Shown here piece after piece: positions 21,367 to 52,000 of a DNA stretch of 64,000 nt. Under the pieces are notes generated by a model. The model saw nothing but the letters and a program-made list of their open reading frames with translations, ran no database searches and was not told the origin of the DNA. This DNA comes from a virus: positions 3,874-67,873 of IMG/VR virus record IMGVR_UViG_3300027759_000080; one strand, given 5' to 3'. The position numbers and the translations under genes were made by a program. Within the stretch, counting starts at the first letter, position 1. Every line of letters begins with the position of its first letter.

Positions 21367-21395
21367 GATTATTTATCTCCTATTTTTTATTTAAA

Positions 21396-21983: not shown

Positions 21984-22019
21984 AATGATTGATTGTTTTT
22001 TTTAAATTGTGATTGATTA
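21981..22019 (-). repeat. ~39-bp repeated translation-initiation leader (copy at 22245-22284)
   Basis: TAATCAATCACAATTT-A8/9-CAATCAATCATTATG in both. Confidence 0.85.
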
Positions 22020-22247
22020 ATTAATTTCTTCCTCAACTATGATATCATCAACGTAACAATTTACATTGTATTTGCCAATGTTTAAATGGTCAATGATAGC
22101 TTGAATTTGGGAGCAGTCGTCTTCTGCGCTCCATCCCTTGCCTAGAACAATTTCTGCTACATCCTCTAGATTGTTGCCATTCACGAATGCGTAAGTTGAA
22201 AAGTAATTACCTTCGATTGATTTTTTAATTTGATTTTTTGATTTCAT
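22017..22247 (-). CDS. Hypothetical protein
   Basis: Start moved to MKSKNQIK after the repeated leader. Confidence 0.6.
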   Translation of the reverse strand: MKSKNQIKKSIEGNYFSTYAFVNGNNLEDVAEIVLGKGWSAEDDCSQIQAIIDHLNIGKYNVNCYVDDIIVEEEIN

Positions 22248-22302
22248 AATGATTGATTGTTTTTTTTTAAATTGTGATTGATTAGTTATTATTAATTGTT
22301 TG

Positions 22303-22348
22303 AACATATGAGGGGAATCGAACCCCTCACTAGAACCATTTTTATGCT
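22303..22348 (-). ncRNA. tRNA-half-like T-loop element, copy 1
   Basis: AGCATA-AAAATGGTTCTAG-TGAGGGG TTCGATT CCCCTCA-TATGTT. Confidence 0.7.
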
Positions 22349-23249
22349 ATGCAAATGTGAATATTTTATTATCCACAGTATTCTCGGTAACAAACTTCAT
22401 TACCTCATCGAATGCTATGTTATTCATGCGATAACCACCACCACTAACTAGGTAATGTAACTTATCATTCTCATCCTTTGGCGCACTAACGTGGTTTGTG
22501 TAACGTGTAACGGCATTAAATAATCCCCATATAGTCTTACCTTCCAAATTAATTTCAGTTTGTAAGGAATCAGCAAAAGCGGTCACTTGATTTAGCTTTC
22601 TACTGCTTACATCTTTCTTATTAGTGTTAACATCAATAGTGAATAGTTTTCTTATCACACGTTCCACCATCTCATCCTTTAGCTCGATGTCAGCCATCTT
22701 CTTGAAGTTACCCATCAATACTTCATCTAGATGCAAAGCCTTTCTTAAATCAGCCATGGCAGTCTCAATTCTACTCTTTGCTGATTCAGTGTGACGGAAC
22801 TTATCTAAATCTTTGTATGCACGATGGAAAGTATTTTTGCATACTACTACTTGACTAGTTGACCCGAATCCGATTGATGCACTGCCATCATTAGAATTCA
22901 AGGCAGTAATCCATCTCATGATAGATGACTTCCCGATGTACATACTAGGTAAAGCGGCTTGTAAGTATACCTTCTTACCTCCATCTAGTTCACCTCCTCT
23001 AGTAGTCTCTAAACCGATGCCCTCGGTAGCTCCTACGATGGTTTCTGCTAACTCCCAATTCTGCATTGGCACATAACGATTACCTACACTTCCTAACCAT
23101 GCATCAGTATCGTTTCTGAAGATACCAAATGTCTCGGTGTTTTTACCATCTTTAGCAAATAACTCTTCTTTGCTTACTGACCAATTTAAATTAGTGCTTT
23201 CTAATAAATTAAAAGTCTTTTCTTGGATTGATTGATTGTTGTTTTTCAT
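22347..23249 (-). CDS. DUF932-like phage/plasmid protein
   Basis: 'LNWSV', 'LGSVGNRYVPMQN', 'NSNDGS', 'VVCKNT', 'WGLFNAVT.Y..H'. Confidence 0.8.
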   Translation of the reverse strand: MKNNNQSIQEKTFNLLESTNLNWSVSKEELFAKDGKNTETFGIFRNDTDAWLGSVGNRYVPMQNWELAETIVGATEGIGLETTRGGELDGGKKVYLQAALPSMYIGKSSIMRWITALNSNDGSASIGFGSTSQVVVCKNTFHRAYKDLDKFRHTESAKSRIETAMADLRKALHLDEVLMGNFKKMADIELKDEMVERVIRKLFTIDVNTNKKDVSSRKLNQVTAFADSLQTEINLEGKTIWGLFNAVTRYTNHVSAPKDENDKLHYLVSGGGYRMNNIAFDEVMKFVTENTVDNKIFTFA

Positions 23250-23267
23250 GATTTTTGTTATTTAATT

Positions 23268-23324
23268 GTTTAAGACAAGGCTTTTTAAACCTTGTTTCGA
23301 TTATTTAAATCTCGTCAGTTAAAC
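23268..23324 (-). ncRNA. Type I hammerhead ribozyme
   Basis: GTTTAA CTGACGA GATT-TAAAT-AATC GAAA CAAGG-loop-CCTTG TC TTAAAC; all core nucleotides and three stems. Confidence 0.9.
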
Positions 23325-23485
23325 TATTGTACATTGTCTCGATAATAGTTAGCTATGCTTATTACTTCCAATGCTAACTGCTCGTTAGACATCTTTGCCA
23401 AGCTAACTACATCTTGTACTGTTTCGAATTCGTCAGATGCCAAATCCATGATGGCATCAATTAATTTTTCTCTGATTGTTTCCAT
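23324..23485 (-). CDS. Small hypothetical protein (53 aa), not in ORF track
   Basis: METIREKLIDAIMDLASDEF...; stop abuts hammerhead. Confidence 0.6.
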   Translation of the reverse strand: METIREKLIDAIMDLASDEFETVQDVVSLAKMSNEQLALEVISIANYYRDNVQ

Positions 23486-23490
23486 GGTGT

Positions 23491-23778
23491 TTATATGCTT
23501 TTTAAATCTTTGTGATACTTATATAAAATTGCTTCGCTTGAATCGTAGCTAAGATGTGTGGCATCCTTATTTATCCTATCTCTTGATGATGGATAGTCAT
23601 CTTCTCTTTTAATGCTTCTAATAGCATTACGCATATCCTTTTTTGCATCTGCTACACTGCTATAATTTAGCCAAATGCAATTGAACATCCCATCCTTTTT
23701 ACTTTCGTAATTTGACATCTTTGATAGTATCTTGAAGTTACCACCGATTTGACCCGTAATTAAAATTTGTGCTCTCAT
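23491..23778 (-). CDS. Hypothetical protein
   Basis: 95 aa ORF. Confidence 0.6.
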   Translation of the reverse strand: MRAQILITGQIGGNFKILSKMSNYESKKDGMFNCIWLNYSSVADAKKDMRNAIRSIKREDDYPSSRDRINKDATHLSYDSSEAILYKYHKDLKSI

Positions 23779-23947
23779 GATTTAATTGTCTCCTATTTTA
23801 ATAATTGAATAATAACCATCAATGAATTCATTGTTACATGAATCGAATTGATAGTACTCTTGTACTCTTGCTTGTGCCAATTCCAATGTAGGAAATGCGC
23901 TGATAATACTGCCATTTGCAGTGTTTTGAATGATGTAATTTGTCATG

Positions 23948-24277
23948 CTATTTAATTGATTTTTTAGGTTTGATAAAATATGCTCCGTTTGGACTGTAGA
24001 CTTCGTAATTCATAGCATCTGCTATTCTAGTTAAATCTAGCAGTCTCTGAGCAATCTGCTGAGGAAGAAATGAGTACTTCGTACCTACATTCCACTGCTC
24101 TTTTTTACTGCTCTGCTCCTCTAGGCATTTGTACTTATTGAATTGCCATTCCAATTCACATTTTAATTCTCTAGCATTCTCGCAGTCATTTATTATACGT
24201 TCTGCAAACTTTGTTGATGCCAATGATGGACTGTTTTTTAATCTTAAGAAAGATTCCTTTTGAGTGATTGTTTTCAT
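23948..24277 (-). CDS. Hypothetical protein
   Basis: 109 aa with CAATCAATCA leader. Confidence 0.6.
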   Translation of the reverse strand: MKTITQKESFLRLKNSPSLASTKFAERIINDCENARELKCELEWQFNKYKCLEEQSSKKEQWNVGTKYSFLPQQIAQRLLDLTRIADAMNYEVYSPNGAYFIKPKKSIK

Positions 24278-24315
24278 GTTGATTGATTGTTTTTTTTAGT
24301 GATTAATTAATTGAT

Positions 24316-24603
24316 TTATTGTGAGCACAAGTCCCATGACTCTAGCTCGTTTACTCTTTTAACATTTAAGCCTAATTCCTTATAAATAAAATTAGCTAAT
24401 TTAGTATTACCTACAGTGCCTTCAGCTATCTGATTTGTGCCTATAGATGCTACAACGTCTGAAGTGCTCATGCCTAATATTCTACTGCAAAATTTAACAT
24501 CTTGCCCTAAGAAGAATTGTTTGACATATTTTTTGTTTCTGACTACTAATGACCAATTATGACAAAAGCCATATTCCGTTGTGATTAAGATTGTTTTCTT
24601 CAT
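24316..24603 (-). CDS. Hypothetical protein
   Basis: 'FFLGQDVKFCSRILG'. Confidence 0.6.
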   Translation of the reverse strand: MKKTILITTEYGFCHNWSLVVRNKKYVKQFFLGQDVKFCSRILGMSTSDVVASIGTNQIAEGTVGNTKLANFIYKELGLNVKRVNELESWDLCSQ

Positions 24604-24627
24604 GATATTTATTTATTTAATTGTTTG

Positions 24628-24671
24628 AGCATAGCATGGGAATCGAACCCATGCCTTGAACCATTTATGCT
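24628..24671 (-). ncRNA. tRNA-half-like T-loop element, copy 2
   Basis: AGCATA-AATGGTTCAAG-GCATGGG TTCGATT CCCATGC-TATGCT. Confidence 0.7.
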
Positions 24672-25081
24672 AGTGTTTGCTTATTCTTTACTTCTATTAT
24701 AAACTGCGAATTAACATAAGAGACGTGCTCTTTTATGATTTTAGGAAGATGTTTGATATCGAATTCTTGATAGTTGTGAAAATTACCTTCGTAATTGCCA
24801 TCACAAGCAGTAATTACACCATAATTATTTAGCACTCTAAACGATTTTATATGTCTATAGCTTTGATAATTGCCATAGTCACTAGTATTAACGCATATGG
24901 TAATATCCTTGAATTTCTTTTTAGATACTTTCACTGCATTCTTAAACGATTCTAGTATGTCATCTGCATCTATCAGATAACTGCTAGTTGTGAATAGCAT
25001 ATCAACTATTCTGACTACTGAAGTAGTGTTTCTATCAATCTCAGATTCGATTTCGATAGTAATTTTGATTGTTTTTTCCAT
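24665..25081 (-). CDS. Hypothetical protein
   Basis: 138 aa ORF. Confidence 0.6.
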   Translation of the reverse strand: MEKTIKITIEIESEIDRNTTSVVRIVDMLFTTSSYLIDADDILESFKNAVKVSKKKFKDITICVNTSDYGNYQSYRHIKSFRVLNNYGVITACDGNYEGNFHNYQEFDIKHLPKIIKEHVSYVNSQFIIEVKNKQTLA

Positions 25082-25085
25082 GTGA

Positions 25086-25211
25086 TTAGTGATTAATTAA
25101 GATTGTTGATAAAATAACGATTGTAAAGAAAGCAGTCATACCAATTAACTGCAAACTAGCTTGTTTTCTCATTTTTGATGCCCATGGGCAATTCTTTGAT
25201 TGTTTTTTCAT
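25086..25211 (-). CDS. 41-aa membrane peptide, not in ORF track
   Basis: MKKQSKNCPW...GMTAFFTIVILSTILINH; typical leader. Confidence 0.55.
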   Translation of the reverse strand: MKKQSKNCPWASKMRKQASLQLIGMTAFFTIVILSTILINH

Positions 25212-25244
25212 GTGATTGATTGGTTTTTTAAATGTGATAATTGA

Positions 25245-25568
25245 TTAATATCTGCCTATGTTACCGATGTAATGGAAATGACTAGAAGTAGTAACTTTAT
25301 AACCTAATTTATTAGCTACATAGTAACAAGCATCTCTTAAGCGCTTGATATCATTGGTATCTTTGCTATATAATTCACCTAAATACCATTGTTGGTATAA
25401 ATCACCTCGGTTAATCTGCTTTTCTATGGTTTGAGCGAAGTTTAACTCCCAACATATAGTTTGCTTGATGTCTCGTAGTGTTTCGCAGTCCTTAAATACC
25501 ATTCTAACTCTTGGATTCATTGGGAATTCTGCTTGTAATTCTGCTAATAATTGATTTTTAGTTTTCAT
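25245..25568 (-). CDS. First gene of early operon, hypothetical
   Basis: Start moved to MKTKNQLL after repeated leader. Confidence 0.6.
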   Translation of the reverse strand: MKTKNQLLAELQAEFPMNPRVRMVFKDCETLRDIKQTICWELNFAQTIEKQINRGDLYQQWYLGELYSKDTNDIKRLRDACYYVANKLGYKVTTSSHFHYIGNIGRY

Positions 25569-25597
25569 AATGATTGATTGGTTTTTTATGTGATTGG

Positions 25598-25647
25598 TTA
25601 GCCAATAGATGAATCGACATCTGATGAATTCCAAATTAATTGGCTAA
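25598..25647 (-). ncRNA. tRNA-half-like element, divergent copy 3
   Basis: TTAGCCAAT-linker-AGATG TCGATT CATCT-ATTGGCTAA then CCA. Confidence 0.5.
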
Positions 25648-25954
25648 TATATTTTATTAATGGTCAAAATAAGTTTATTGTTAGTAAACTTATAAAAACA
25701 TCATGGTATATCCCCTCCATGATAGGTTTATTCGATTGATTCGTAGTCTATTATACGATATCAGTATCTGTTTTCAACTGTATTTCAGTGTTTATTGGTT
25801 TAGAGTCGTAAATGATTCACATTATATAGATTCGGCAATGTTTCACAACAAACTAACTATATAAAACTACTCAATGATTAGTATCTTTATACATATACAT
25901 ACTAATTGACTAAAAGAACGATATTTTCGAGAATTTTTCGGCTTGAAAACATTG

Positions 25955-25984
25955 GCAATATACGAGCACATTTTATAAATGCAA
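25955..25984 (-). promoter_or_regulatory. Candidate early promoter TTG-N19-TATATTGC
   Basis: Near-consensus -7 box with correct spacing. Confidence 0.5.
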
Positions 25985-26023
25985 GCACTAATCAAGATGA
26001 AATTATAATTATTTTTCAAGTGA

Positions 26024-26653
26024 TTGATTATCAAGATGATTATTTTTAGTATAATTCAAGATAATAATGCAAGTGAATGATAATGAGGGGAATAAAATAT
26101 ACTGCTGATAATCAATGATATAGCAAGTAGTATTCAAGAATGAAAACTAAATAGCTGAAAATGAGCACTATAAGTTAATAAACTGAATGTGAGATGTTTA
26201 CATTACTGAAAATGAGCACAAAATATAAAGATATTAGGCTAAAAAATCACTAAGGATAAAAGGATAATTATAATGCTTACTGATAAGAATAATAACATCT
26301 ATAGTAACGGAATATTTATGATGACCATGTTTAACATTAGATAGGAATGCATAAGGCAATTCACAGTCTTTAGCTATTCGATAGTATGTAATGCCTTTAC
26401 TAACACATAGTGAGTCTATCCATCGAATGAATAGCAAATGTGCCTTTAAACGATTGGCATTCCGTATTTCATATGTAGTATTATCGTTTTTGATGTGCAA
26501 TGATAAGGATATTTTGACGTTATTAGTCATTTAAAGGGCTAAAAAAACTATGCTCTCAAAAACTTGTCTCCATCCCATGAGCAATTGGCATTTTGCATCT
26601 TATAATCAGCAAGTTATATTTTGAAGATGATTTTGTAAATAGCTGATTATCAT
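26024..26653. repeat. Cluster of degenerate palindromes (C/T)TGA-N3-T(C/G)A(A/G)
   Basis: Copies at 26024, 26077, 26105, 26155, 26183, 26206, 26599, 26643. Confidence 0.65.
26234..26530 (-). CDS. XRE/Cro-like HTH regulator
   Basis: 'GITYYRIAKDCELPYAFLSNVKHG...TIDVIILIS'. Confidence 0.65.
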   Translation of the reverse strand: MTNNVKISLSLHIKNDNTTYEIRNANRLKAHLLFIRWIDSLCVSKGITYYRIAKDCELPYAFLSNVKHGHHKYSVTIDVIILISKHYNYPFILSDFLA

Positions 26654-33323: not shown

Positions 33324-33547
33324 ATATGTTTTTATTATAATCCAAATAAGTTTTTAATATTATCTAATACATCATCTTCAAAAATATTAGATTTAGTAAT
33401 ATCTTCTACGCTAATATAATTAAGTCTGTCATTTACTTTTTTTTTAGCATCTTCTATATTATAAGCTCTAACCTTGGTGGTCATCTTTCTGCCGTAAAAC
33501 TCAAAACGTAATATGTAGTCTTTCATATTTTTCTGTAATTTATTTTG

Positions 33548-33745
33548 CAAATATATTTCATAAAATGAGAAAAACAAATTATTTATTTATTATTTTAAAT
33601 TATTATTGTTTTGACTTATATATTGGCTAAATATTGTTTTTATATTCTGTATTAGATAATATATTGTCGAGTAAATTTTAATTGGCTGATTTTCATTAAT
33701 TATTAAAAATAAAGCTTGCGTGTTTAAAATGCTAAACTACATTTG
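33548..33745. promoter_or_regulatory. Divergent promoters flanking AT-rich gap
   Basis: TTTG-N19-TATATTTG on - (33548-33555); TTG-N19-TACATTTG on + (33738-33745). Confidence 0.7.
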
Positions 33746-35962: not shown

Positions 35963-36403
35963 ATGAAAAAAAATCTAAATTACAAAGAATGCTCGTTCAT
36001 ATTGAACAGGAGTGAGGAGTATTGTCAAGGTCTTATGATGAAGGAGAATGGCAAGATGGGAATTCAAAAAGAATTGACCCCAAAAGAATTTAAAGAAGAG
36101 GCTGCATCTTGGTCAATATCAGTTGAAAGACTATCAGAGATAACAAAGATAGATGTAGCTCATTTACTAGAAGATATTAATAAAAACTTCTTCAGAAACG
36201 AGATTTGTGTAGAATATTTGATAAAGAAAGTAAATCAAAAGTTTAAGCCTAATGCCAAGACTGGTGCATATCCTATATCGATAGTTATTCCTGAAGAAAT
36301 TACAGCACTTATGAACGAGGAAAATCAAAAGAAGTGCATAAAGGTATTAGAAGAAAGAGTAAGTAAAAATGTTAATTTTAAACTAGTAAATAAAAATATA
36401 TGA
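35963..36403 (+). CDS. Hypothetical protein
   Basis: 146 aa ORF. Confidence 0.6.
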   Translation: MKKNLNYKECSFILNRSEEYCQGLMMKENGKMGIQKELTPKEFKEEAASWSISVERLSEITKIDVAHLLEDINKNFFRNEICVEYLIKKVNQKFKPNAKTGAYPISIVIPEEITALMNEENQKKCIKVLEERVSKNVNFKLVNKNI

Positions 36404-36621
36404 TAGACAAAATAATAGGAACAGTTTTTTATGATGGGCTAAACTATATGGTAATAGACCCATATTGCGGTTTAATATGTATAAATCAAAAAGATGCAAA
36501 ACAATTTAAGAATAGAGATACTATATCTTATGAACGAAAAACTTGTTGGCTTGATAACAAAAAAGGAAAAACAATAGGATGGGAAAAATTTGCATATCAA
36601 CCAAAATTAATAATAAAATAA
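36400..36621 (+). CDS. Hypothetical protein
   Basis: 73 aa coupled ORF. Confidence 0.5.
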   Translation: MIDKIIGTVFYDGLNYMVIDPYCGLICINQKDAKQFKNRDTISYERKTCWLDNKKGKTIGWEKFAYQPKLIIK

Positions 36622-37002: not shown

Positions 37003-37190
37003 TGGAAATTAGAATACTTAAACAGGGCGTTTACGAGACCGACAAAGGAGAAAAGATAAAGATTATTGAAATATGGTATGGGGCTAATCCTCGTATCGTA
37101 TTCCAAATAGGCGATACAGTTTACACTAGAAGTAGGGAAATATTTGAGGAAGGAATTAGAAATAATAAAATAATTAAAAAACTTTTTTGA
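37002..37190 (+). CDS. Hypothetical protein
   Basis: 62 aa coupled ORF. Confidence 0.55.
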   Translation: MEIRILKQGVYETDKGEKIKIIEIWYGANPRIVFQIGDTVYTRSREIFEEGIRNNKIIKKLF

Positions 37191-37216
37191 AATGAGAAAA
37201 ATATTTCTATCTTCGC

Positions 37217-37297
37217 ACTCGATTGTTGGGTCTGATTAACCCGAGTTTTTCATGTGATTCTTAAAAAAGCCTAGTAGTAATATTGGGCTTTTTTTTT
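37217..37297 (+). ncRNA. Candidate small RNA
   Basis: TTTG-N18-TATCTTCG promoter, 5' hairpin, TTTTTCATGTGATT, terminator AAAAAAGCCTAGTA-GTAA-TATTGGGCTTTTTT. Confidence 0.55.
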
Positions 37298-37351
37298 GTT
37301 TGATTATATATTACATTTGCATAATAAAAAATAATTTAAAACAATATTTTT

Positions 37352-39716: not shown

Positions 39717-42700
39717 ATGCCAGAAGGAATAGACAAGGGATTATTAGAAGAATACATAGCAACTGCAAATAGCGGTAAATACAAATCAATGGCAGAAGTT
39801 AATGCCAAATTTCCAGAGCTAAAAGACTACAGCCCAGATTTATTAGAGGAGTATGTTGCCACTGCAAATAGTGGTAAATATAAGACTCTTGACGAAGTAA
39901 ATTCAAAATTTCCAGAATTTTCAACATCAAAAACTCCTGCTGTTCCATCGTTCTCAACAGATATGTCAAATACAAATACATTACCTGTAATGAAGAACTC
40001 TCCTCTACAGGCAAATGTAGACAAACCTGTAAAAGTAGTAGCACCGACATACATTGACCCTACAAAAGTTTTAAAAACTAAAGACGTTGTAGATATAAAT
40101 GCAGAAAAAGCTCCAAAGACAATGGCTCAAATTGACGAGGAGAGCAGGATTACTATGCAGAACAGAAATATCTTTACGCTTACGCAGAGAGGTTTAGACG
40201 AAAGTATTGAATACCAAAACTTATTAGTAAAAAAACTGGCAAAGGAATTAGGCTACACTGACGACAATTCCTTAAAAGGAACTACTGCTGTTCAAAAGTT
40301 AGCTAATGACAGACAAGAAGGATGGAAAGAAGATTATTTAGAACCAGAAGAACTAGCTCAAGTAAGAGCTTTTGAAGACTACGAAGTATTTAAAGAACAA
40401 GGGAGAGAAAAAGAATCAAACGAGGCTTTACAAAAATATTTAAACAGCAGGACTGAGTACAGAAAAAAAATAGACAACGATATAGTAGATTTAAAAGGAG
40501 AACTGGTTTCAGCAGAAGGTGATGATGCAGTATTAATAAGGGCAACCATTGCCGAGCTAGAGGCTAAAAAACTTCCTTTTTATGACCCTAAAAAGCAGAT
40601 GGAATCATTTTTAACAGAAAATGAGACAGATGTAGCAGCAGTGTCTAAACCTACAGAGACGGCTCAAGAAAAATTAAAAAAATATATACTTGCACAAGAT
40701 AATCTTGTAACTAATTTAAGAAATAGACTTGGAATTACTGGTAAAAACAATAGCTTTCAAAGGTTTACAGATGAATGGAAAGTACTACAAGGAGACAGAA
40801 GACAAAAAGATGATTTAGAACTTCTTCATAATACAGAATTAAAAATAAAGAATGCTGTTCAGATACTTGAATTAAATAGAACCCCTTTAGACAAAGACAG
40901 TGCGTGGGGCGTACTTGCTAAAGAATTTGTTGGAGAACTGATTCCTATGAAGAAAGGTTTTAGTGGAGTAGACAATACGATAGCTGCAAATATTGGCAGT
41001 ATAGTTAGGGACGCAGATATAACGTATGCCGCAAATGAAAAGCAAGTACAAACAGCTGAATTTGCTAGTAATCAATATCAGTTTGGTAGTGCAAAGTGGG
41101 TTTCTCAAAATTTAGCCCCAACACTAGCTATTATGGTCGAAATGATACCAGCGACATTGCTTACGGAAGGCTTAGGGTCGACTGGATATTTATCAAGACT
41201 AAGTAGACCTTTAAAGATTTTAGCAGAAAGAGGTAGCCTAGGTAAAGCTGGAGGAACTTTTTTTAAAGTAATACAGGCAAATAAATATGGTCGTGGTTTA
41301 TTAAAAGCTGCCGCCAGTGGTGTTAATTACGGTATAGAAAGTCAAGCAGTTACAATGCTTGCTCCTCAATTAAAAGATGAGATGGGCTTTTCTAATGGTT
41401 TATTTGCAGGGACTGTTGGTTCGATAGCTGGTCAGCTTACTGGTAAGGTAATGGAGACTAGTTTAAAGTCTATCGCTACATTATTTGGCAATAAAGCTCC
41501 ACAGGCAATTGCTGCAATAGAAAAATACGGTTCGGTAATAGCTAAAGCTAAAGAATTTAGTAATACAGTTGCAGGGGAAACTGTTGAGGAGTATGGAGAG
41601 CAATTAATGAGTATATATAAAGAAAGTGATAACTATAAAAACTTTATATATAATCTTAAGAAGCACTACGAGACCACTGACGCTTTAGAAGAGTTTGCTA
41701 CTATATTAATGATGTCGGTAGGAGCTCCAGCAGGTAGCACTTTAGGCAAAAGTTTATTTAGTGCAAGTAAAAAAGCATATAATAACCTTAGCAGAAAAGA
41801 AAGAGAAACAGCTAGTAGAATGGCGGATGAAATTCATAATGAAGTTAATCTAGCTATGGATGATGCCGCTAATCAAACTATAAGAGACGAAAATATACAA
41901 GTTCCAACTAGAAGTAATGAAGAGCAAGACAACGCTATTCTTCAAAAGCAAAAAGATTTAAAACTTCCTACAGCTCCTGAAGTAGTATTATCTGATGTTA
42001 GTAAGGCTGCCATGGCTAAAATGGAGGGTGGAGAAGCTCTGACTATTGAGGAGCTAAAAGAACTTAGTAATGAGCTTTATCAAAGATATAACGGTATATC
42101 AGCAACAAAAGACCAAGATAATAGACAGTTTACTACAGAACAAATAAACGAAACTTTAATCAAGCTAGAAAATAATATTACTTTATTAGAAAATAGTAAA
42201 AATAAATTAGAAGAGTCTGGAGAGGCTAGTATTGTTGTAAATCCAAATGAGGCAGTTACACAGGACGCTAAACCTGTAACAAGTACACCTAATACTAAAT
42301 TTTATCAAGGTGTTGATTTTAGAGCACAAACAGGGTTACCTAACGGTGACTACACAGAAGAACAAGTAAAGGCAGCTAGAGAGGCTAAATTAAAGAAAGA
42401 AGGCGTAACGCCAGCAGAAATAGAAACAATAAATGCAGAAGAAGAAATTATACCAGCAACTGAAACCCCTGCTGCACCAATTAGCGGTGTTAGTGGTGAG
42501 GTACAGGCATCTGGTGATGTAGAACAAACAACAGCTAGCGAGAATGAGGTTAAAGCCGAAGAGATAAGAAACAAACTAGATAAACTTACAGAAGGATTTG
42601 TAAATGATGGCAAAACTGAAAAAGAAGCAGAAGACTTAGCTTTTAAATCTATATCAGAAGAAGAAAAGCAAGTATTAAGAGATAGTTATAACGAATCAAG

Positions 42701-45700
42701 AAACCAACCAAAAACTAAACAAAATGATAAAGAAAACGGAACAGGGGTACAAAGTAACATCGGAGAAGGGCAAGAACCTATCAAAACCCAACCTATCGAA
42801 ACCACAGGCGGAGAAAAGATTGAAGCAAGTGGAAATGTTCAAGCATCTGAAGAAGAAGTAGTTAAACCAATAGCAGACCAAATAGAAGAGTTAAGGGTTA
42901 AAGAGAAGGCAGAGTATGATGCTATGCCTAATCAAAAAGACGATGCTAAAAGAGAAAAGATTTATGAAAAGTACAACGCCTTAATCACTCCTTTACTAGA
43001 ACAGCAAAAAGAAGAAATTAAGCAGGCTGAAAAAACCACAAGTGTGTATGTAGCTCCTTTTTACGATGCAACTGTCAAGGATATTAAAGAGGTTAAAGAT
43101 ATAGAAAAGTCTCCAGCGTATAAGAAATACATAGAAACCATGTATTCTGCGGCAGAAGCTCTTGGAATTAAAATAAAGAAAACCGTTGGAAACCTAGGTA
43201 AATACACTCACGATACAACAGGAATAGAAATAAGTGAAATATCAACTTTAGTAGAATTAGAGACAGACGATATAGAAAAAGCTACAGAATTTGCTGTATT
43301 AATGGGAGCACTTGCTCCTGAGGTTCAAGAGTCTACAATTTCGGCACAGGTTTTGAGTGAAGATGAAATAACTCCAGATAGACATACAGCTGATTTCCAT
43401 AACATAAAAGTTGACAATATAAAAGAAGCAGTAGAAATAGCAGCTTTATCAGGACTAGACCACACCATAATAGTAGCTGATAATGTTATTCAAATAATAT
43501 CGTTTAAATACTGGAGTGTTGAAGAAAATGACGAATTTGACCAAAAAGTAGAAAATTTAATACAAAAATTAAAAGAAAAAGGAATAAATTATGAAACAAA
43601 CACAAAAGCAGTTGAATCAAGATTCATTACAGCCAGCCCCTCAGAATTCACCCCTTATAACAGAGAGGACATCATCAGAAGAATGGAAGAAAAGGTCGGC
43701 AAGAACGATGGAGATACTGGGCTCGAAAAGGGACTTCTCAGACGCAGGCAAATGCTTCGTGATGCCATTCAAAATGCGAAGATAAGAAACAATGAATTTC
43801 TAAGACAGGAAAAGCTTGCTTCGGAAAGAGCCGAGTATGGCAAACTCAGAACAAAGCAAATTGAGCTAGAGAAAAATGGAGAAAGGCTATCAGACGAGGA
43901 AGTTAAAAGATTTACCGAGCTTCTTAATATCCTTATCCCTTCTACTCAAGAAACCATTAGAAATGCATCAGAAGACTACGAAGAGGCAAGAAAAGAACTT
44001 GAAAAAGTTGCCGCTAAGGTGATAGGCGACTTAGGTTTTTTATCTACTTTTGGAATTAAAAGAGCCGAAAGAGCTGCTACTAAGATACTTAGATGGTATA
44101 AAGGTAAGGCACAATGGCTTGGTGATGGTGCTAGAACAAACTTAATTGCTTACAATGAGAAGGACGTAATGGTTCTTTATAAAAAATTACAAGCACAGTT
44201 TAAGGGCGGTATAATAAGACTTGAAAAAGACCCTACTGAATTAGGATACCCTAAAAAACTTCTTGAGGTAAGAACCTCAAACGGTAAAATCGCTGAGTTT
44301 CAAGTAATGACACCTGAAGGCTATTTAGCCAAGGATGGTATTAATGGTTTTCCAGAAGAAAAAAGAGATTTTGCTGCTAAAGAGTTAGCTAAAATACAAA
44401 AAAGATTAGGTTGGTTAATACCAGATGGTGTTGGACATTATTTTTACGAGATAGAAAGAGATTTTAATGTACCTACAGACCTAAGAGAAAGAGCCAAGGC
44501 TATTAGTTTAAAATACTACAATGCATTCCTTAAAGCTGATTCAAAGTATACTGAAAAAGAATTTTTAGATGAGATTTCTCAGTTTAAGAAAGATGTTGAT
44601 GCTGCTGATAAGACAAATTGGGACAAGGGTAATAATGGAATATCTCCAGTAACTGTTAATGACTTTATAGAAGATACAAATAATCAATACGAGCCTATAA
44701 CAGTATCAGACACTAGTCACGATACATTTACCAAGGACAATGCTATAGACTACGAAGAAGATGAAAAGGAAGGTGATAACGGACGTTCTTATACCTATTT
44801 AGCATCGGTAACTGTAAGCTTAGTAGATGACGTTAGTGGCGAAACTATAGGAAGTATTACCAAACTAAAAGATGAGTATGGGGATGTTACTTGGAGTGCT
44901 GAGGATTCTGATGGTAGCGAAGTAGCTGACAATGTCGGCACTAAAAACGAGGCTCAAAGAGCTCTTGTAGAACAACATAACAAGCAAAAAGCAAAGGAGT
45001 TTAATAAAGAAAAAGCTAGGGGCATTAAGGAAAGAACTAAGCAAAGAGCTATAGAAGCAGAAAAAGCTGCAAAAGCTAAGGAAAAAGCTGAGAAAGAATC
45101 TGAAAAAGAAAAGGCTGAAAAAGAAAAAGCTGAAAAAGAAACTGAAAAAGCTAAACCAGAGCAAACTGAAAAAGAAAAGGCTAAAGAAAAAGCCAAAGAG
45201 GCTCTAAGAGCTAAAGCTGCTGCGGTTAATGCTGAGGTTGTTAGTGCCGCACAAAGAGTTCAGCAGGCTTTAGAGGCAACAGGAATAACTGTAGAAGTAA
45301 TTGATAACGAGAAAGATTTCCAAGATAAACTTGATGCTGAAGGAGTTAAAAGAGATAGCTCAGTTGGAGCTAGCGGAGTATTTATATCTAAGTCAGGTAA
45401 AATATTTATTAACGCAAGCAAGGTTGATGCCAAGTGGGGTAGTGTAGATGTATGGCACGAGGGAACTCACCCTATTATTAACATAATAAGAAACACAAAT
45501 CCTAAGTTATATAAGTCAATTATAGACGGACTAAACGAGCTAGTTGCTAGTAATCCTGAAATAGCTGCTGTTGTTGAGTGGGCACAAAGTAATTACGAAG
45601 GCGAAAACACTTTAGAGGATGAAACTATAACTGAAACCATAGCAAGAATAGCTAACGGAAATATAGACCTGTCAAAGATACCTACATCATTAAGAGACAA

Positions 45701-48419
45701 GATAATAGATTTCATTAACGGAATTGCCAAGTCTCTAGGATTAAAGCCCATGTTGAAAGGTTCTAATATCGCTACGTTCAAGAAGATGGCAAAAGAAATA
45801 TCTGCCGCACTTAAAGAAGGTAAAGATATTAGTAGCATAGTTGGAATGGACAATGTTAAAAACTTTGAAAATTTAAGAAATGAAGACGGAAGTGATTTTG
45901 ACCAATTTAAGATTTCAAATAAATTTAGAAATTTAATCAGTGGAATTACCTTTGAGTATGAATCTGATTCACAAAATTTTAAAGACTTAGTAAAGAAAGA
46001 TAAGATTACAAATAATAAAGTACTAAGTGATTTTGAGGATATGTTCGTGATGCTCCATGTACCTGATAATGCGTTTACTGGTTTTATATATAAAGATGGA
46101 GAAATATTAGTTGAAGGCAAGGGAGGTGTTTATTTCCCAATTAAATTTAATAAGGAAGGGTATTTCTGGGCTTCAACAGAGGCTGGAGTAGATAAGCTTG
46201 TAGATGTATTAAACAAGACAAGAGCTGCTAATAAAGATAAAGATGGTAAGGTAAGACTTGCATTAATATCTTCTAGAGCTCAAAAAATAATGTCTTCAAC
46301 AAATGCTTCAAATAATATGATTGAAATATTATTTTCTAAAGCATTTGACAAAAGAGCTAGACTAAGCGAGGCTCAAGTAAAGAGAGCTATATTTAATGCG
46401 TCAAATGAAATTCAGACATTATTTCAAGAAGATTATGATAAAAAAATAAAGGATTTAGAAAATAAAATAAAATCTGCTGACAATAAAATAAAGAAGAAGA
46501 TAGAAGTTAGTAAAAACGAAAAAGAAAAACGCAGTGCAGAAAAAAGCTTAAAATCCGCAAAAGCAAGCGGTGCTGTGCAAGCTCCTGTATTTAATCTTAA
46601 AGAAAGTGCTGATTCTTACATGTCAAAACTAGCTATTTTTAACAATGTAGACAACTCTTCTTTTGAAGAAAGAAAACTTTTTAATGAACTTACTTTAAAA
46701 AATATTAGAGATTTAATAAATGAAGAAGACGATAGATTAAATAAAGGAGACAAAAAGAAAGAAAGACAAGTTGCTCAAGAAATCCTTACATTTTTAGGTC
46801 AGGGTAAAGAAAGCATTAAGTTTAAAACGTCTGGAGGAAGACTTTCTACAGCCAATTTAATTGCTGGGTTTTCTGATTTATTAGGAGAGCCTACGCTAAA
46901 AGGAGAAAATTCAAATAATATTTATGCTATACTAGAAATAGATACAGATGTAGAGAAGGTAAGAATAGATGATGCACATGGTTCTTATCCATTTGCAGTA
47001 AAAGGTAAAGAAGGTTCTAGTATTGTTTTGCATATATTGCAAGATAGAAGAAATTGGCAGCAAAGTGTGTTAGACCCTGAAACCAATAAGCCTATAGGTG
47101 AAGAGGAGATAATTGATGAAGAAACTGGAGAGCCTAAGACTTATGAAAAAAGAATAGCAGAAATACTGCCACCAACAGCTGGAATAACTTTTGAGCCTAT
47201 AAAAATATCTACTAAGAGCCAACCTCAATTATCAAAAGGTAATAGAGGCAAGACAGGTAAGCCTATTAATTGGGAGCAATCAAAAGAAGGTAAGGGCGAC
47301 CCTAGTATATCTTCAAGAAATTCAATAGTACAAGAAGCTGCTAAAAACTTAAAAGAAGGTAAAATTACAAACGAAGAGTACAGGGCAACAGCTTCAGAAA
47401 ATAGCCCAATCAGAGCTATAACTAGATTTTTTAACCCAGCTACACTCCAAGAAATTAGAAATGCATTTGCTGCTGGTACAAAAAAAGATACAGAGGCGGA
47501 AAATATAAACAAGCCAGTTAAAGAAGGAACGAGAGTTGGATTAAGACTAGACATTCCAAGTTATAAGTTTAATAATACTTGGGTTGTTTCTATTCATGAG
47601 GGGTTTACAAAAGCTGGAAAAATTCTTTCATATAGCAATGTTGCTAAAATAAAAAATGTATCTTTTGAACCAGTTCCAGAAGCGGCATTAAACATAGCCA
47701 CTGGTGATAAGACAAAATCTTCAGTAGCAAGAATGTATGGCGAATGGCAAAACATTCAAGGCGGAACAATGAAAGAGCGTGGTGAAAACGCCAAGAAAAT
47801 GGTTCAGGATATTGTTAACGACCCTAACTATGTACAGGTTGGAATGAATCCATTTAGACAGTCTTATTTTTACGATAGAAGCAGCGATATTGGTAGACCA
47901 ATAAAGTCGGCAGATGAAGTAATTCAAATTGGAGGTTTAGTATATGCTAAAAACCCTGTGTACGGCAACTGGACAGATGAGGCGTATAGAGTAAAAGGAC
48001 TATTAGATGCAAATCAAAATCCTGTACAATTCTCAAAAGGAGGCAGAGATGTTCAGCCTGTTGTTGATATGATTAAAGAATCTCAGAACGAAGGTGAGTT
48101 AACTGACAAAGAAATAGCTGAAACTTTAGAAGATTATTTTCCTAAGGAAGATATTCAGGCGGCATTTGATTTAATAAATAACCCAACTGAAAATGAATCG
48201 CCAACTACTACCACAGAGCAAGCAGAGTTTACTCCAAACGTCAAAGACATAGAATCATTTAAGAAGATACTAGGAACTACAAGTGGCGCTATTAGAAACA
48301 AGAACATAGCTGAAGCTGTTAAAGTAAATCCTAAAGTTCAAGAAATCATGGATAACTTTGAAGAGCTAAAGAAACAATTGATGGCAAGCGTAGAGCTGAC
48401 CGAAGATTGTAGTTGGTAA
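39717..48419 (+). CDS. Giant polyvalent protein with RelA/SpoT-like nucleotidyltransferase and zincin-like domains
   Basis: 'IKRAERAATK...DGAR...GY...EFQVMT' (~44050-44315); 'WHEGTH' (~45455). Confidence 0.75.
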   Translation: MPEGIDKGLLEEYIATANSGKYKSMAEVNAKFPELKDYSPDLLEEYVATANSGKYKTLDEVNSKFPEFSTSKTPAVPSFSTDMSNTNTLPVMKNSPLQANVDKPVKVVAPTYIDPTKVLKTKDVVDINAEKAPKTMAQIDEESRITMQNRNIFTLTQRGLDESIEYQNLLVKKLAKELGYTDDNSLKGTTAVQKLANDRQEGWKEDYLEPEELAQVRAFEDYEVFKEQGREKESNEALQKYLNSRTEYRKKIDNDIVDLKGELVSAEGDDAVLIRATIAELEAKKLPFYDPKKQMESFLTENETDVAAVSKPTETAQEKLKKYILAQDNLVTNLRNRLGITGKNNSFQRFTDEWKVLQGDRRQKDDLELLHNTELKIKNAVQILELNRTPLDKDSAWGVLAKEFVGELIPMKKGFSGVDNTIAANIGSIVRDADITYAANEKQVQTAEFASNQYQFGSAKWVSQNLAPTLAIMVEMIPATLLTEGLGSTGYLSRLSRPLKILAERGSLGKAGGTFFKVIQANKYGRGLLKAAASGVNYGIESQAVTMLAPQLKDEMGFSNGLFAGTVGSIAGQLTGKVMETSLKSIATLFGNKAPQAIAAIEKYGSVIAKAKEFSNTVAGETVEEYGEQLMSIYKESDNYKNFIYNLKKHYETTDALEEFATILMMSVGAPAGSTLGKSLFSASKKAYNNLSRKERETASRMADEIHNEVNLAMDDAANQTIRDENIQVPTRSNEEQDNAILQKQKDLKLPTAPEVVLSDVSKAAMAKMEGGEALTIEELKELSNELYQRYNGISATKDQDNRQFTTEQINETLIKLENNITLLENSKNKLEESGEASIVVNPNEAVTQDAKPVTSTPNTKFYQGVDFRAQTGLPNGDYTEEQVKAAREAKLKKEGVTPAEIETINAEEEIIPATETPAAPISGVSGEVQASGDVEQTTASENEVKAEEIRNKLDKLTEGFVNDGKTEKEAEDLAFKSISEEEKQVLRDSYNESRNQPKTKQNDKENGTGVQSNIGEGQEPIKTQPIETTGGEKIEASGNVQASEEEVVKPIADQIEELRVKEKAEYDAMPNQKDDAKREKIYEKYNALITPLLEQQKEEIKQAEKTTSVYVAPFYDATVKDIKEVKDIEKSPAYKKYIETMYSAAEALGIKIKKTVGNLGKYTHDTTGIEISEISTLVELETDDIEKATEFAVLMGALAPEVQESTISAQVLSEDEITPDRHTADFHNIKVDNIKEAVEIAALSGLDHTIIVADNVIQIISFKYWSVEENDEFDQKVENLIQKLKEKGINYETNTKAVESRFITASPSEFTPYNREDIIRRMEEKVGKNDGDTGLEKGLLRRRQMLRDAIQNAKIRNNEFLRQEKLASERAEYGKLRTKQIELEKNGERLSDEEVKRFTELLNILIPSTQETIRNASEDYEEARKELEKVAAKVIGDLGFLSTFGIKRAERAATKILRWYKGKAQWLGDGARTNLIAYNEKDVMVLYKKLQAQFKGGIIRLEKDPTELGYPKKLLEVRTSNGKIAEFQVMTPEGYLAKDGINGFPEEKRDFAAKELAKIQKRLGWLIPDGVGHYFYEIERDFNVPTDLRERAKAISLKYYNAFLKADSKYTEKEFLDEISQFKKDVDAADKTNWDKGNNGISPVTVNDFIEDTNNQYEPITVSDTSHDTFTKDNAIDYEEDEKEGDNGRSYTYLASVTVSLVDDVSGETIGSITKLKDEYGDVTWSAEDSDGSEVADNVGTKNEAQRALVEQHNKQKAKEFNKEKARGIKERTKQRAIEAEKAAKAKEKAEKESEKEKAEKEKAEKETEKAKPEQTEKEKAKEKAKEALRAKAAAVNAEVVSAAQRVQQALEATGITVEVIDNEKDFQDKLDAEGVKRDSSVGASGVFISKSGKIFINASKVDAKWGSVDVWHEGTHPIINIIRNTNPKLYKSIIDGLNELVASNPEIAAVVEWAQSNYEGENTLEDETITETIARIANGNIDLSKIPTSLRDKIIDFINGIAKSLGLKPMLKGSNIATFKKMAKEISAALKEGKDISSIVGMDNVKNFENLRNEDGSDFDQFKISNKFRNLISGITFEYESDSQNFKDLVKKDKITNNKVLSDFEDMFVMLHVPDNAFTGFIYKDGEILVEGKGGVYFPIKFNKEGYFWASTEAGVDKLVDVLNKTRAANKDKDGKVRLALISSRAQKIMSSTNASNNMIEILFSKAFDKRARLSEAQVKRAIFNASNEIQTLFQEDYDKKIKDLENKIKSADNKIKKKIEVSKNEKEKRSAEKSLKSAKASGAVQAPVFNLKESADSYMSKLAIFNNVDNSSFEERKLFNELTLKNIRDLINEEDDRLNKGDKKKERQVAQEILTFLGQGKESIKFKTSGGRLSTANLIAGFSDLLGEPTLKGENSNNIYAILEIDTDVEKVRIDDAHGSYPFAVKGKEGSSIVLHILQDRRNWQQSVLDPETNKPIGEEEIIDEETGEPKTYEKRIAEILPPTAGITFEPIKISTKSQPQLSKGNRGKTGKPINWEQSKEGKGDPSISSRNSIVQEAAKNLKEGKITNEEYRATASENSPIRAITRFFNPATLQEIRNAFAAGTKKDTEAENINKPVKEGTRVGLRLDIPSYKFNNTWVVSIHEGFTKAGKILSYSNVAKIKNVSFEPVPEAALNIATGDKTKSSVARMYGEWQNIQGGTMKERGENAKKMVQDIVNDPNYVQVGMNPFRQSYFYDRSSDIGRPIKSADEVIQIGGLVYAKNPVYGNWTDEAYRVKGLLDANQNPVQFSKGGRDVQPVVDMIKESQNEGELTDKEIAETLEDYFPKEDIQAAFDLINNPTENESPTTTTEQAEFTPNVKDIESFKKILGTTSGAIRNKNIAEAVKVNPKVQEIMDNFEELKKQLMASVELTEDCSW
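42724..42861 (+). CDS. Nested +1-frame basic protein (45 aa)
   Basis: MIKKTEQGYKVTSEKGKNLS...AEKRLKQVEMFKHLKKK; leader AAAACTAAACAAA-ATG. Confidence 0.6.
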   Translation: MIKKTEQGYKVTSEKGKNLSKPNLSKPQAEKRLKQVEMFKHLKKK

Positions 48420-49076: not shown

Positions 49077-52000
49077 ATGGCGTGTTTCGTAACATATAAA
49101 GGAAAGAGATATAGTGAGGCTGAATTCTTCGCATTGCTTTCAGCAGGTGAGTATGACAAACTAGTAGCTGACGGAAGTTTTGTTCCTAAAAAGATAACTT
49201 TGTCTACAGATGCACCTGCTCCAACAGGAGGCAAGATGAAAGAAAGAAGCCTTACAAAACAATTCTTAAAGGACAATCCTTCTTTACAAATGTCAGAAGG
49301 GGCTATAAATTACGAAGAGATATCTAATAAAAGCACTGTAAAAGAAGTAATAAATCTTATTGACGAAATGGGTTTAGATGCTGCTATATACGCTGTTAAT
49401 GATTTTAAGAACGGAATGAATCTTAGGATTAGATTTACCATGGCACAGATAGCAATAAAGAAGCTTTCTGCTGAGGGAAGATTAGACGAGGCTAGTGATT
49501 TAAGAGAAAACTTAGTAGTTGCAGCTACAGAGGCTGGACAAGGCGTACAGGCATTTGCGATGTTTCCTGCACTTACGCCTGAAGGCGAACTAAGAAAGAT
49601 GTTAAAGATGATTAACAACATTAACAAGAAGAGAGAGGAAAAAGACAAGAAGCTAAAGAAGATAAAAGAAAAGTTTAAAGAAGCTAACGAAGATGCTATA
49701 AACGAGGCTGTTGAAAACTTAGGAGGTAAGCCTTCTGAAAAAAGAAAGAAAGCAGCAAGAACATATGCTGACTACGGTACTAAGAATAAGGTAATTACAA
49801 AAGAAAAGTACGAGGAGATGAAAAAAGCCCTTGCTAATAAATCTTTTGGATTAGTATTGCCTGTTCAATTAATTCCTGTTGGTGTATATCATTTAGAGGC
49901 TGGCTCAAGAAAGTTTAAAGAATTTAGCGAGGCACTTATAGAAGATTTTGGCGACAAGGTAAAACCATATTTAGCTGACCTTTATAAGAAAGCAGCAAAA
50001 GAATTAGATATTCCTGCATCGGAAATAGATAGTGAAGCAACTATCTTACAGGAGAACAAAGACAGAAGGGCTAGAGAAGCTAAGAAAAGTGTAAAAGGAG
50101 CTCTTAAAGACTTGAATAAATCTATTTCAGATATAGCTATAAAGCATTACACAGAAATAGAATCTACTAAAAAATCTTTAGTTGATAAGATAATGGAAGG
50201 TACAGATTTAACTGAAAATGAGGCTAAAGAATATGCTAAAGCTATAGAAGAAGAATTTGAAAGATTAGTTACAGAAAAGAAAAAGAAAATACTAGACACA
50301 GTATTTAATCCAAGAGAAAGAAAAAAACCTGCGCTAAAAAACTTAGAATCAGACTTATTAAAATTAACAAATTTAGGAGCTTTTAAAGAAGAGGCTTTAG
50401 TAGAAGCATATGCTAAAAATATGGGATGGAAAAAGCTTTCTAAAGAAGAAATTGCAGAAATAGAAAGATTGGCATCTGTAGTAGAAGAAACCTCAGAAGG
50501 GATAAAAAGAGCTCAGGCTGTTGAGGATTTATTAGGATACGAGGCTAAGATAAAAGGCATTTCATTTATGGATATTTTAACATCTATATGGTATGCAAAT
50601 GTTTTGTCTGGATTTACAACTCAGTTAGTTAACGTAGTAGCCAACGCAACACAATTACTATTCTCTCTTGCGGAAACTACAATAAGAAACCCTAAAACAG
50701 GAATATTTGCGGCTAGGGGTATTATAGACGGTTTCAATAAAGGATTACTAGAAGCTGGCAGTTCTTTAAAGACTGGCTATAATCCAATCAGAGGAAGAGT
50801 AGAAATACCTTCTACCTTAGAACTTGTAACTTTTAAGGGAGGTAAATACAATCCATACAACTACCATAAGTATGTAAGAAGACTAATGGTAGCTTCAGAT
50901 GTTATTATGTTTGAGGCTCAAAAGGAAATGAGAGCTTATCAGTGGGCTAGAATGTTAGCCGCCAAGGAAAACAAGTTAGACCCTACTGTAAGAATTAAGC
51001 AAAGAGCTCTAGATATATTACACGCAAATGATAATACTATTCCAGAAGCTAAAAAAACAGCGGCAATAGAAGCTCAAACAGAAATAAATGCATTAAATAG
51101 TCAAAACTTATCTAGTTCTGAAAAAGCAAAGAAAATAAAGAATATAAGAATAAATGAAAAAAGAAGAGTCTTTGAATTAGTTCAAGAAAGCAGGGGTTCT
51201 GAAATATTAGACGAATCAAACGCTTATGCCGCTTGGAATACTTTTAATCATCCTGCTTCAGGTTTATTGGGATGGGGTACTGAGTTAATAAACAAAGGAA
51301 TAGGTAAAAACGAAAAAACAAAATTAGGTAGATTTATAATTCCTTTTACAAACGTAATAGCAAACGTGGCTAACATGGGAATAAATTATACTCCATGGGG
51401 ATACCTAAGAGTTGCCAAGTTAACTATAGGTGGTAAAGAAATATTAAAAGGAGAAGGCTCTGTATTTGATAATCCTAGAAAAGAATGGGATTCTATGTCT
51501 GATATGCAAAAAGAACAGTACAGAGTAGAAATAATGACAAAAGCTACAGTTGGATTAGCATTGTCCGCAGCTTTATTAATGCTTACAATAAAAGGTGATG
51601 ACGATGATGAGCCTTTATTAGAAGTGACAGCAAATGCTACTGGAGACTGGAAAAAAAATGAACCGCTTAAAAAAGATGGATGGCAGCCATATTCATTTAG
51701 AGTTTACAATAAGAAAACTAAAGAATATGGTGATTGGATTTCTTATCAGTACAGTCCTATGTTAGTAATGTTTAGTCTTATTGGAAATCTTGGAGATTAC
51801 GATAGATATAGAAAAGAAAAAAATGACGATTCACTTATAAATAGAATGACTTTTGCTATTATTAACGCTTCGAGAACATTTTTAGACGGAACTTTCTTAG
51901 TATCTTTAAATTCTACTCTTAAAGCTTTAACAGAAACCAAGGTAGATAGAGTTGCGGACGATTATATCAAATCTTTATTTAAAACCACTAAAGGATTTGT

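Follow-up and report, generated by a model that had tools for sequence, protein, structure and literature searches.

A candidate small RNA gene between the replication and late modules of a probable flavobacterial phage, and its predicted pairing with early-gene starts

Does the short spacer between the replication module and the late operon of an uncultured virus hold a gene for a small regulatory RNA and, if so, which messages could such an RNA reach? The window, by which we mean the whole stretch of 64,000 nucleotides analysed here, makes up most of a 67.9-kb uncultured virus record with an estimated completeness of 94%; its G+C content is about 34%, and a scan for tRNA and tmRNA found 0 genes. 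Nucleotide searches of a cultured-phage collection gave no match, and the relatives of its terminase are distant (27-29% identity among the 12 matches listed). Because these terminase relatives are phages of Flavobacterium, Cellulophaga and Maribacter (68, 15 and 1 of the 85 terminase-related records, with 1 unclassified), the host is most likely a member of the Flavobacteriia. Our own crude ORF caller supplied the gene starts used throughout, and the layout of the window is as follows:

Up to ~12.3 kb, plus strand: plus-strand genes, from the ORF map of the window.
12.3-33.6 kb, minus strand: early-like block of ~53 small ORFs, almost all without known families, from the ORF map.
From 33905, plus strand: replication module with replication initiator and helicase, its small ORFs ending at 37190, from the ORF map and family scans.
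Between the replication module and the late operon: spacer of 161 nt that holds the element.
From 37352, plus strand: late operon encoding proteins of 339, 447 and 2900 amino acids and running on to the terminase (57644) and portal (59704).

A preliminary description of this DNA had seen a promoter, a hairpin, a 14-mer and a terminator at 37187-37297, and all four are present by sequence. Together they form a plus-strand promoter-to-terminator unit whose predicted product is an RNA of ~76 nt, with the following parts and one neighbour:

37187-37217, plus strand: promoter P1, TTG-N18-TATCTTCGCA, of the Bacteroidota sigma-A type.
37219-37222, plus strand: predicted transcription start, +1 at ~37220, placed by the position of the sigma-A box.
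37220-37226, plus strand: unpaired 5' block CGAUUGU with the first GAUU, from folds and pairing maps.
37226-37244, plus strand: hairpin 1, a 6-bp stem with a 7-nt loop containing UGAUU (the second GAUU), from predicted folds.
37245-37262, plus strand: unpaired linker with the 14-mer UUUUUCAUGUGAUU (37246-37259), from predicted folds.
37263-37297 (stem part to 37294), plus strand: terminator T2, with a G+C core stem of 8 bp, an A/U extension to it, GUAA as the loop and nine U in a row after the stem.
37312-37321, plus strand: promoter P2 (TACATTTGCA) of the late operon starting at 37352, outside the RNA and conserved in relatives.

The -33 element of P1 is a TTG at 37187-37189 that overlaps the TGA stop (37188-37190) of the upstream ORF; after an 18-nt spacer come the -7 box TATCTTCG (37208-37215) and CA, which together make up TATCTTCGCA at 37208-37217. 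A sigma-70 scan of the region gave background numbers only, and we rejected P1 as a sigma-70 promoter, since the Bacteroidota sigma-A pattern fits instead. This pattern, TTG-N18/19-TAnnTTTGCA, also precedes the operon starts at -16311, +16367, -28450, -33555, +37312, +52812 and +54025, and the start of the +33716 operon has the same arrangement as TTG-N18/19-TAnnTTTG, so that one host-type promoter appears to serve all modules and operons of the phage. Sites of the form TAnnTTyGCA are rare, with only 17 on both strands of the 64 kb. The +1 is placed at ~37220 because the sigma-A box of Flavobacterium psychrophilum spans -12 to -5, according to the available text of PMC9723704. Across nine variants of the element, the -7 box is perfect in three (TATATTTGCA), reads TATCTTTGCA in one and reads TATCTTCGCA in five; P1 may be a weak promoter in the window and in four other variants, because the box there has TTCG and not TTTG. 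Two divergent promoter pairs of this type were also seen, one at 16311/16367 (window 16300-16375) with TAnnTTTGCA on both strands and one at 33555/33716 (window 33545-33745) whose plus-strand box is TTTGCG; judged by their sequence and position, such pairs mark switches in the direction of transcription.

Terminators comparable in strength to T2 are few: a scan of bases 1-60000 found only three, T2 included. On the plus strand between the +33716 promoter and T2, no terminator-like site had more than 7 stem pairs and only sites of 5-6 pairs were present; for this reason T2 must also end the +33716 operon, which is that of the replication module. The -33 element of P1 thus lies over the stop of the preceding coding sequence, and the unit has its terminator in common with the mRNA. 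This combination defines an sRNA embedded in a 3' untranslated region, and in its predicted placement the candidate matches 3'-UTR sRNAs with their own promoter. Hairpin 1 was considered as a terminator in its own right and rejected, because its T-run reads TTCTTC in 8 of 9 variants. The linker carries CAU, the complement of a start codon (37251-37253), together with the third GAUU, and CAUGUGAUU and GAUUGU are the candidate seed stretches. The motif GATT thus occurs three times within 47 nt, once in each unpaired region (5' tail, loop and linker), a density with a Poisson probability of ~0.002, calculated post hoc.

It is important to establish whether the unit belongs to a known RNA family or overlaps a gene. 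A search of the whole window against Rfam 15 gave 0 matches at the gathering threshold; the best score below threshold was 27.3 bits against a threshold of 46.5, and the sub-threshold matches were driven by the terminator. On the plus strand, a micro-ORF starting with TTG (LLGLINPSFSCDS) was rejected as coding, with most of its positions changing and its stop gone in one variant. The only ORF on the opposite strand has 5 codons. The preliminary description had held that this ORF, MKNSG*, is not a gene start, and the comparison bears it out: the ORF is real and unconserved in the nine variants, where it becomes MKNLD* in four, loses its stop in four and its ATG in one, so that a start or stop codon is lost in 5 of 9, and we rejected it as coding. 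Judged from these comparisons, the candidate belongs to no curated RNA family and is not a cis-antisense RNA. Lambda OOP and P22 sar are phage RNAs of ~70-80 nt that run from promoter to terminator and act by base pairing, each transcribed across the gene that it targets from the other strand. The strand facing the candidate, unlike that facing OOP and sar, encodes nothing conserved, and any pairing of the candidate must therefore be in trans.

The element was recovered from related contigs by protein-anchored and pattern scans, which, after identical copies were collapsed, gave the nine distinct variants of a 137-nt frame. A metagenome scan added only 5 loci and a second protein scan only 2 new contigs, and by these sequences the element family is small and closely related. 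Six further loci found with the pattern AGTAGTAATATTGGGC (L035-L040) were unrelated; they were judged by eye to be chance matches and dropped. Overall nucleotide identity among the relatives is 82-92% (~87% for G001), and because all of them are close, conservation has little power. With this limit, four relatives share 83-89% identity with the window in the RNA part, where the third codon positions of the flanking genes give 62-84%; identity is 91% in the terminator and only 65-76% in the stretch after T2, with P2 and the 5' UTR.

Within the RNA, GATTG of the 5' block is invariant in the 7 of 7 variants aligned there, the loop TGATT is invariant, all three GATT remain constant among variants while adjacent positions vary, and the linker TTCATGTGAT is retained in 8 of 9 variants, with TTTATGTGAT in the remaining one. 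The stems pair in 94.3% of 140 stem cells across the variants, whereas slid registers fall to 39-61%. Each hairpin has one compensatory pair, hairpin 1 at pair 18-28 (G-C in 3 sequences, A-U in 4) and the terminator at pair 59-74 (C-G, U-G or U-A across variants), and this level of covariation was reached by 4 of 500 column shuffles. Fold z-scores run from -2.65 to -4.58, and all six folded sequences share one architecture of 5' tail, hairpin 1, free linker and terminator. The linker and the 5' block were unpaired in the five folds started at the predicted site, and when the RNA was started at 37216, a 5' CAC paired with GUG, three bases of the seed.

A covariance model built on the element found exactly one copy in each of the 6 region-covering sources among the 11 searched, and no paralogous copies. 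On the strand of the copy, the only extra full-length matches in the window fell on the early-leader cluster and were weak (E 1.6 and 6.7), and the corresponding weak match in G001 had an E of 0.27. In three contigs (L003/L041, L044 and L045), an extra ORF of 164 amino acids separates T2 from the late promoter; its own promoter reads TATATTTGCA, and its coordinates in L003 are 1861-2355. This ORF matches no Pfam family at E <= 0.001, and its HNH-like appearance was noted by eye only. In L003/L041, the sole extra-ORF contig with a readable element, the element stays beside the upstream gene, an arrangement that speaks for a unit acting independently of the late operon and against a leader that has to adjoin it. 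Taken as a whole, the unit at 37187-37297 is probably a small-RNA gene, and we consider it likely that a discrete RNA is made from it.

If such an RNA is made, what might it pair with? The preliminary description had noted that the 14-mer at 37246-37259 is identical to the plus strand at 25204-25217, and the identity of TTTTTCATGTGATT at the two places is exact. It had also cautioned that AT-richness makes a chance match possible, and this caution was well founded: at 401 of the 64,000 window positions (0.63%) there begins a 14-mer with a further copy on one strand or the other. A spacer of 161 nt should therefore hold ~1.0 recurring 14-mer, and this one holds exactly one, which puts the exact match by itself at chance level; blastn-short gives it an E of 0.021, a statistic that ignores AT-richness. 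The wider family of the 14-mer is over-represented, since at up to 2 mismatches it has 13 matches against 1.93 expected, a number reached by 0 of 100 shuffles. By its sequence, the 14-mer is the reverse complement of a recurrent early-gene start.

The second exposed block, GAUUGUU at the 5' end, lengthens the predicted pairing, since it is complementary to the ACAAUC found after AUG-AAAAA in early genes. In the two best targets, which are neighbouring early genes, 20 and 21 contiguous bases are thereby paired while hairpin 1 bulges out. These and the weaker predicted targets are:

25198-25217, minus strand: best predicted target, positions -6 to +14 of a 41-aa ORF (25086-25211), 20 contiguous bp, ddG -18.2 kcal/mol.
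25067-25087, minus strand: second predicted target, positions -6 to +15 of a 138-aa ORF (24665-25081), 21 paired bases including one G-U, ddG -18.3 kcal/mol, 1 mismatch to the 14-mer.
21300-26100, minus strand: early-gene cluster with the leader AAUCAC..AAAAAAAC-CAAUCAAUCA-NN-AUG-AAAA-CAAUCA, with weaker predicted targets at the starts 25568, 24277, 23249 and 23485.

Near matches to the 14-mer had been proposed at four further starts. Those at 25081 and 16276 hold with one mismatch each, while those at 24277 and 23249 have more than 2 mismatches in an ungapped scan; the latter two starts pair over 17-18 bp in co-folding. A Pfam search of nine predicted targets and the upstream ORF found only DUF932, in an ORF of 300 amino acids.

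The starts of the early genes have a shared character of their own. Compared with early gene bodies, the 53 early start regions contain 35 AATCA where 7.6 are expected and 17 CAATCA where 1.8 are expected; in the early block CAATCA has 30 copies on the sense strand and 4 on the antisense strand, and at 46 plus-strand starts it shows no enrichment. The motif is concentrated in the cluster at 21.3-26.1 kb. The reading frame of the CAATCA that follows the ATG differs between genes, which indicates a nucleotide-level signal and not a peptide motif. In the minus-strand cluster at 21300-26100, the leader is a repeat of ~45 nt that consists of AATCAC, an A-run, CAATCAATCA, two bases, ATG, AAAA and CAATCA. 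Perhaps this leader, being unstructured, enhances translation in a host that does not use Shine-Dalgarno sequences, and the shared motif is a testable translation signal by itself. Just upstream of the early gene starting at 25568, the arms TTAGCCAAT...ATTGGCTAA form an inverted repeat of 9 bp around a 33-nt loop (25598-25648); possible roles are those of an operator, of a processing site or of a terminator inside the early region.

The preliminary description had called for a ranking of targets against shuffled controls, and its outcome varies with the assumed 5' end of the RNA:

Linker-only duplex, 99 window start regions, 250 dinucleotide shuffles: best p=0.14; count <= -10 p=0.04; top-5 mean p=0.02.
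Co-fold ddG, RNA from 37216, 150 shuffles: best p=0.11; count <= -8 kcal/mol p=0.63; top-5 mean p=0.12; 12/12 early p=0.007.
Co-fold ddG, RNA from 37220, 198 shuffles: best -18.3 vs -13.1 +/- 2.3, p=0.02; count <= -8 p=0.09; top-5 mean -15.5 vs -11.3 +/- 1.6, 0/198; top 10 all early, 0/198.
Linker-only duplex, G001, 67 start regions, 250 shuffles: best p=0.07; count <= -10 0/250; top-5 mean 0/250; early 8/10 p=0.27.
Co-fold ddG, G001, 200 shuffles: best p=0.015; count <= -8 p=0.01; top-5 mean 0/200; top 10 all early, 0/200.

From 37220 the top-5 mean beats all shuffles, but from 37216 its p is ~0.12; in these models the significance of the targets depends on an assumed, predicted 5' end and is present at 37220 and absent at 37216. 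The observed energies are constant for any start from 37217 to 37221 and weaker outside this interval. It is important to note that these p-values are not independent, because a single idea underlies all the shuffle tests and G001, being so closely related, is no independent replicate.

Seed-target co-evolution, examined in the window and G001 by comparing each one's own RNA with the swapped one, gave no signal: the top-10 means for own and swapped RNA are -11.5 and -10.6 in the window and -10.55 and -11.04 in G001. G001 is the only relative that covers the early region, and it is without the stretch of the two best targets. Orthologous starts gain and lose the seed match freely, and a single matched change, in which the orthologue of the 16276 gene has AAG for AAA and the seed has C for U, is anecdotal. 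In place of the window's 24672-25548, which holds the two best targets, G001 has a shorter unrelated stretch (L031 5920-6277), and this replacement again holds early starts of the ATCACATG type. Taken together, targeting of the early genes is plausible, being somewhat better than chance in in-silico pairing. The earlier proposal of an sRNA that silences early translation through shared leaders thus stands as regards the anatomy of a gene and the presence of AATCA/CAATCA at early starts only, whereas the significance of the pairing depends on the start site and co-evolution lends it nothing.

We regard the whole model, in which a trans-antisense sRNA acts against the early genes, as a tentative one with somewhat less than an even chance of being right, and it has to be weighed against other accounts. 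According to the first, the locus has no separate RNA function: T2 would be an operon terminator, hairpin 1 a stabiliser of the 3' UTR, and P1 weak or incidental or its product a by-product, with the complementarity arising because an AT-rich sequence resembles a typical gene start in reverse. The chance rate of the 14-mer repeat, the energies from 37216 that are no better than those of shuffles, the missing co-evolution signal, the imperfect -7 box in 5 of 9 variants, the need for T2 to end the +33716 operon anyway, and a conservation only moderately above that of third codon positions all speak for this account. It fits less well with a full match to the promoter pattern leading into hairpin, linker and terminator, which is unlikely by chance given 17 TAnnTTyGCA sites in 64 kb, with invariant loop and linker motifs beside co-varying stems, and with top-5 energies and an early bias that beat all 198 and 200 shuffles from 37220, with the same values from 37217 to 37221. 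We consider this account of a plain terminator, and of the complementarity as an AT-rich coincidence, unlikely, though the first to be kept in mind.

The anatomy and conservation would fit equally well if the sRNA were real and had host mRNAs as its targets, or if it acted on an RNA-binding factor of the host or the phage, one specific for leaders of the AAUCA type, as its sponge or decoy; the match to the phage would then be secondary. The three unpaired GAUU resemble multi-site sponge RNAs, a lambda-encoded sRNA regulating host genes has been described in the available part of a preprint (bioRxiv 10.1101/2024.10.31.621285), and the predicted targets of the PAK_P3 sRNAs include host sites, as stated in the accessible text of PMC4933390. 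Against such a role, the strongest complementarity found, of 20-21 bp, is to the phage's own early genes, and we consider it distinctly unlikely.

Two further accounts concern the position of the element and its repeats. In lambda, the late operon is immediately preceded by the promoter PR' and, a short way behind it, the strong terminator tR'; this unit yields 6S RNA, requires the antiterminator Q and has no second promoter after tR'. By analogy, the unit could be a terminated leader controlling the late genes, in which transcripts from a constitutive P1 would mostly end at T2 and a phage factor or the structure of the RNA itself would allow read-through into the late operon at 37352, leaving the short RNA as a by-product; the element does lie exactly at the boundary of the replication and late modules, with a strong terminator within ~75 nt of the promoter. 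However, the late operon has a conserved consensus -7 box of its own in P2, located after T2, which speaks against membership in the PR'-tR' class, and the extra ORF, with a promoter of its own, parts T2 from the late genes in 3 contigs, all of which makes a late leader very unlikely. Finally, the GATT/TGTGATT repeats could be DNA-level sites for a phage regulator or a replication initiator that also binds the early-leader repeats, given that ATGTGATT occurs twice, 22 bp apart, in 4 variants, that TGTGAT copies lie 21 bp apart in the early leader at 25211-25232 and that the element adjoins replication genes, but we hold this to be highly improbable, as the first copy is unconserved (TCTGATT or TTTGATT in 5 variants), the strand bias of CAATCA (30 vs 4) fits an RNA-level role better, and the stems co-vary as RNA would.

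In the preferred reading, that of a trans-antisense sRNA against early genes, host sigma-A RNA polymerase would start at P1, at ~37220, and transcription would stop at T2; since T2 also ends the replication-module operon, the RNA would be embedded in the 3' end of that operon. Its predicted shape is an unpaired (C)GAUUGU, a short hairpin with a UGAUU loop, the unpaired linker UUUUUCAUGUGAUU and the terminator hairpin. On early mRNAs from the opposite strand, the two unpaired blocks would bind next to each other and together cover 20-21 contiguous bases (-6 to +14/+15), and hairpin 1 would bulge out as a three-way junction. The pairing is predicted to be strongest at the adjacent genes starting at 25211 and 25081 and weaker at other early genes with the CAAUCA leader. 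For the presumed type of host, initiation is not driven by Shine-Dalgarno sequences and uses unstructured, A-rich start regions, as set out in the available portion of PMC6847099. Because initiation in such a host needs start regions of this kind, a duplex over -6 to +15 should block it and would help to shut off early protein synthesis as the RNA accumulates. A post-transcriptional shut-off of the early genes would make sense in this phage, because all operons seem to use the same host-type promoter.

A bolder version, which we put forward as a speculation and consider rather unlikely, is that a virulent flavobacterial phage times its early-to-late switch by one sRNA whose two exposed blocks, on either side of a bulged hairpin, clamp 20-21 bases over the start codons of an early-gene family with a common nucleotide-level CAAUCA leader, an RNA counterpart of RegA/RegB in a host without Shine-Dalgarno sequences or Hfq. 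The RegB and RegA of T4 are proteins that recognise GGAG or AU-rich start regions and bring about post-transcriptional early shut-off. The likeness would lie in the outcome, early messages being silenced through a common start-region motif, and the proposed effector here is an RNA.

Most of what is known of regulatory RNAs encoded by phages comes from temperate coliphages and from a small number of Pseudomonas phages, and a limited, non-exhaustive and partly poorly targeted search of the literature found no sRNA for phages of Bacteroidota. The c4 RNA is processed from the operon transcript that it controls and is part of a temperate-phage immunity circuit. The candidate resembles the c4 RNA of P1 and P7 in that the latter is a phage RNA of ~77 nt that represses the phage's own genes (ant) through short complementarity near the ribosome-binding region. 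In contrast to c4, the candidate has a predicted promoter of its own, its predicted targets lie on the opposite strand, ~12 kb away, and comprise several early genes; it is also without sequence or Rfam similarity to c4 and is not placed in an immI-type operon upstream of its target. The P1 c4 RNA is described as a trans-acting, 77-base antisense RNA in the accessible text of PMC8546580. For the virulent Pseudomonas phage PAK_P3, two intergenic RNAs of ~100 nt, sRNA1 and sRNA2, were seen by RNA-seq, and for sRNA1 the available part of the report proposes a single phage target, an early ORFan gene with a perfect match of 11 nt (PMC4933390). By comparison with PAK_P3, the candidate is known from its sequence alone, and its matches are longer, at 14 exact bases and at 20-21 bp when both blocks are counted, and lie across the start codons of several genes.

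In its arrangement the candidate also resembles bacterial RNAs: P1 reaches into the last codon of the preceding gene and T2 is shared with the mRNA, as in DapZ and MicL, the difference being that the candidate is phage-borne. DapZ and MicL of enterobacteria have their own promoter at the end of the upstream coding sequence, a terminator common to the mRNA, and a dependence on Hfq; to our knowledge, Bacteroidota are without Hfq. If confirmed, the candidate would represent a post-transcriptional shut-off of a whole early-gene set via a common leader, would show how a base-pairing RNA can act where ribosome binding relies on unstructured A-rich starts, and would offer a small, portable gene-silencing tool for flavobacteria.

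Some features of the rest of the window were also recorded. Three giant ORFs, at 39717-48419 (2900 aa), 1396-5994 (1532 aa) and 49077-52805 (1242 aa), are possibly ejected or internal virion proteins; those of 2900 and 1532 aa have no PHROG match, the 2900-aa ORF is also without a Pfam family, and the 1242-aa ORF has a weak match to DarB-like antirestriction. Within the replication module, the 73-aa ORF at 36400-36621 is non-homologous in the four relatives compared, since the alignment identity of ~41-45% is at the random level, and by this comparison it is a swapped cassette within a module that is otherwise conserved.
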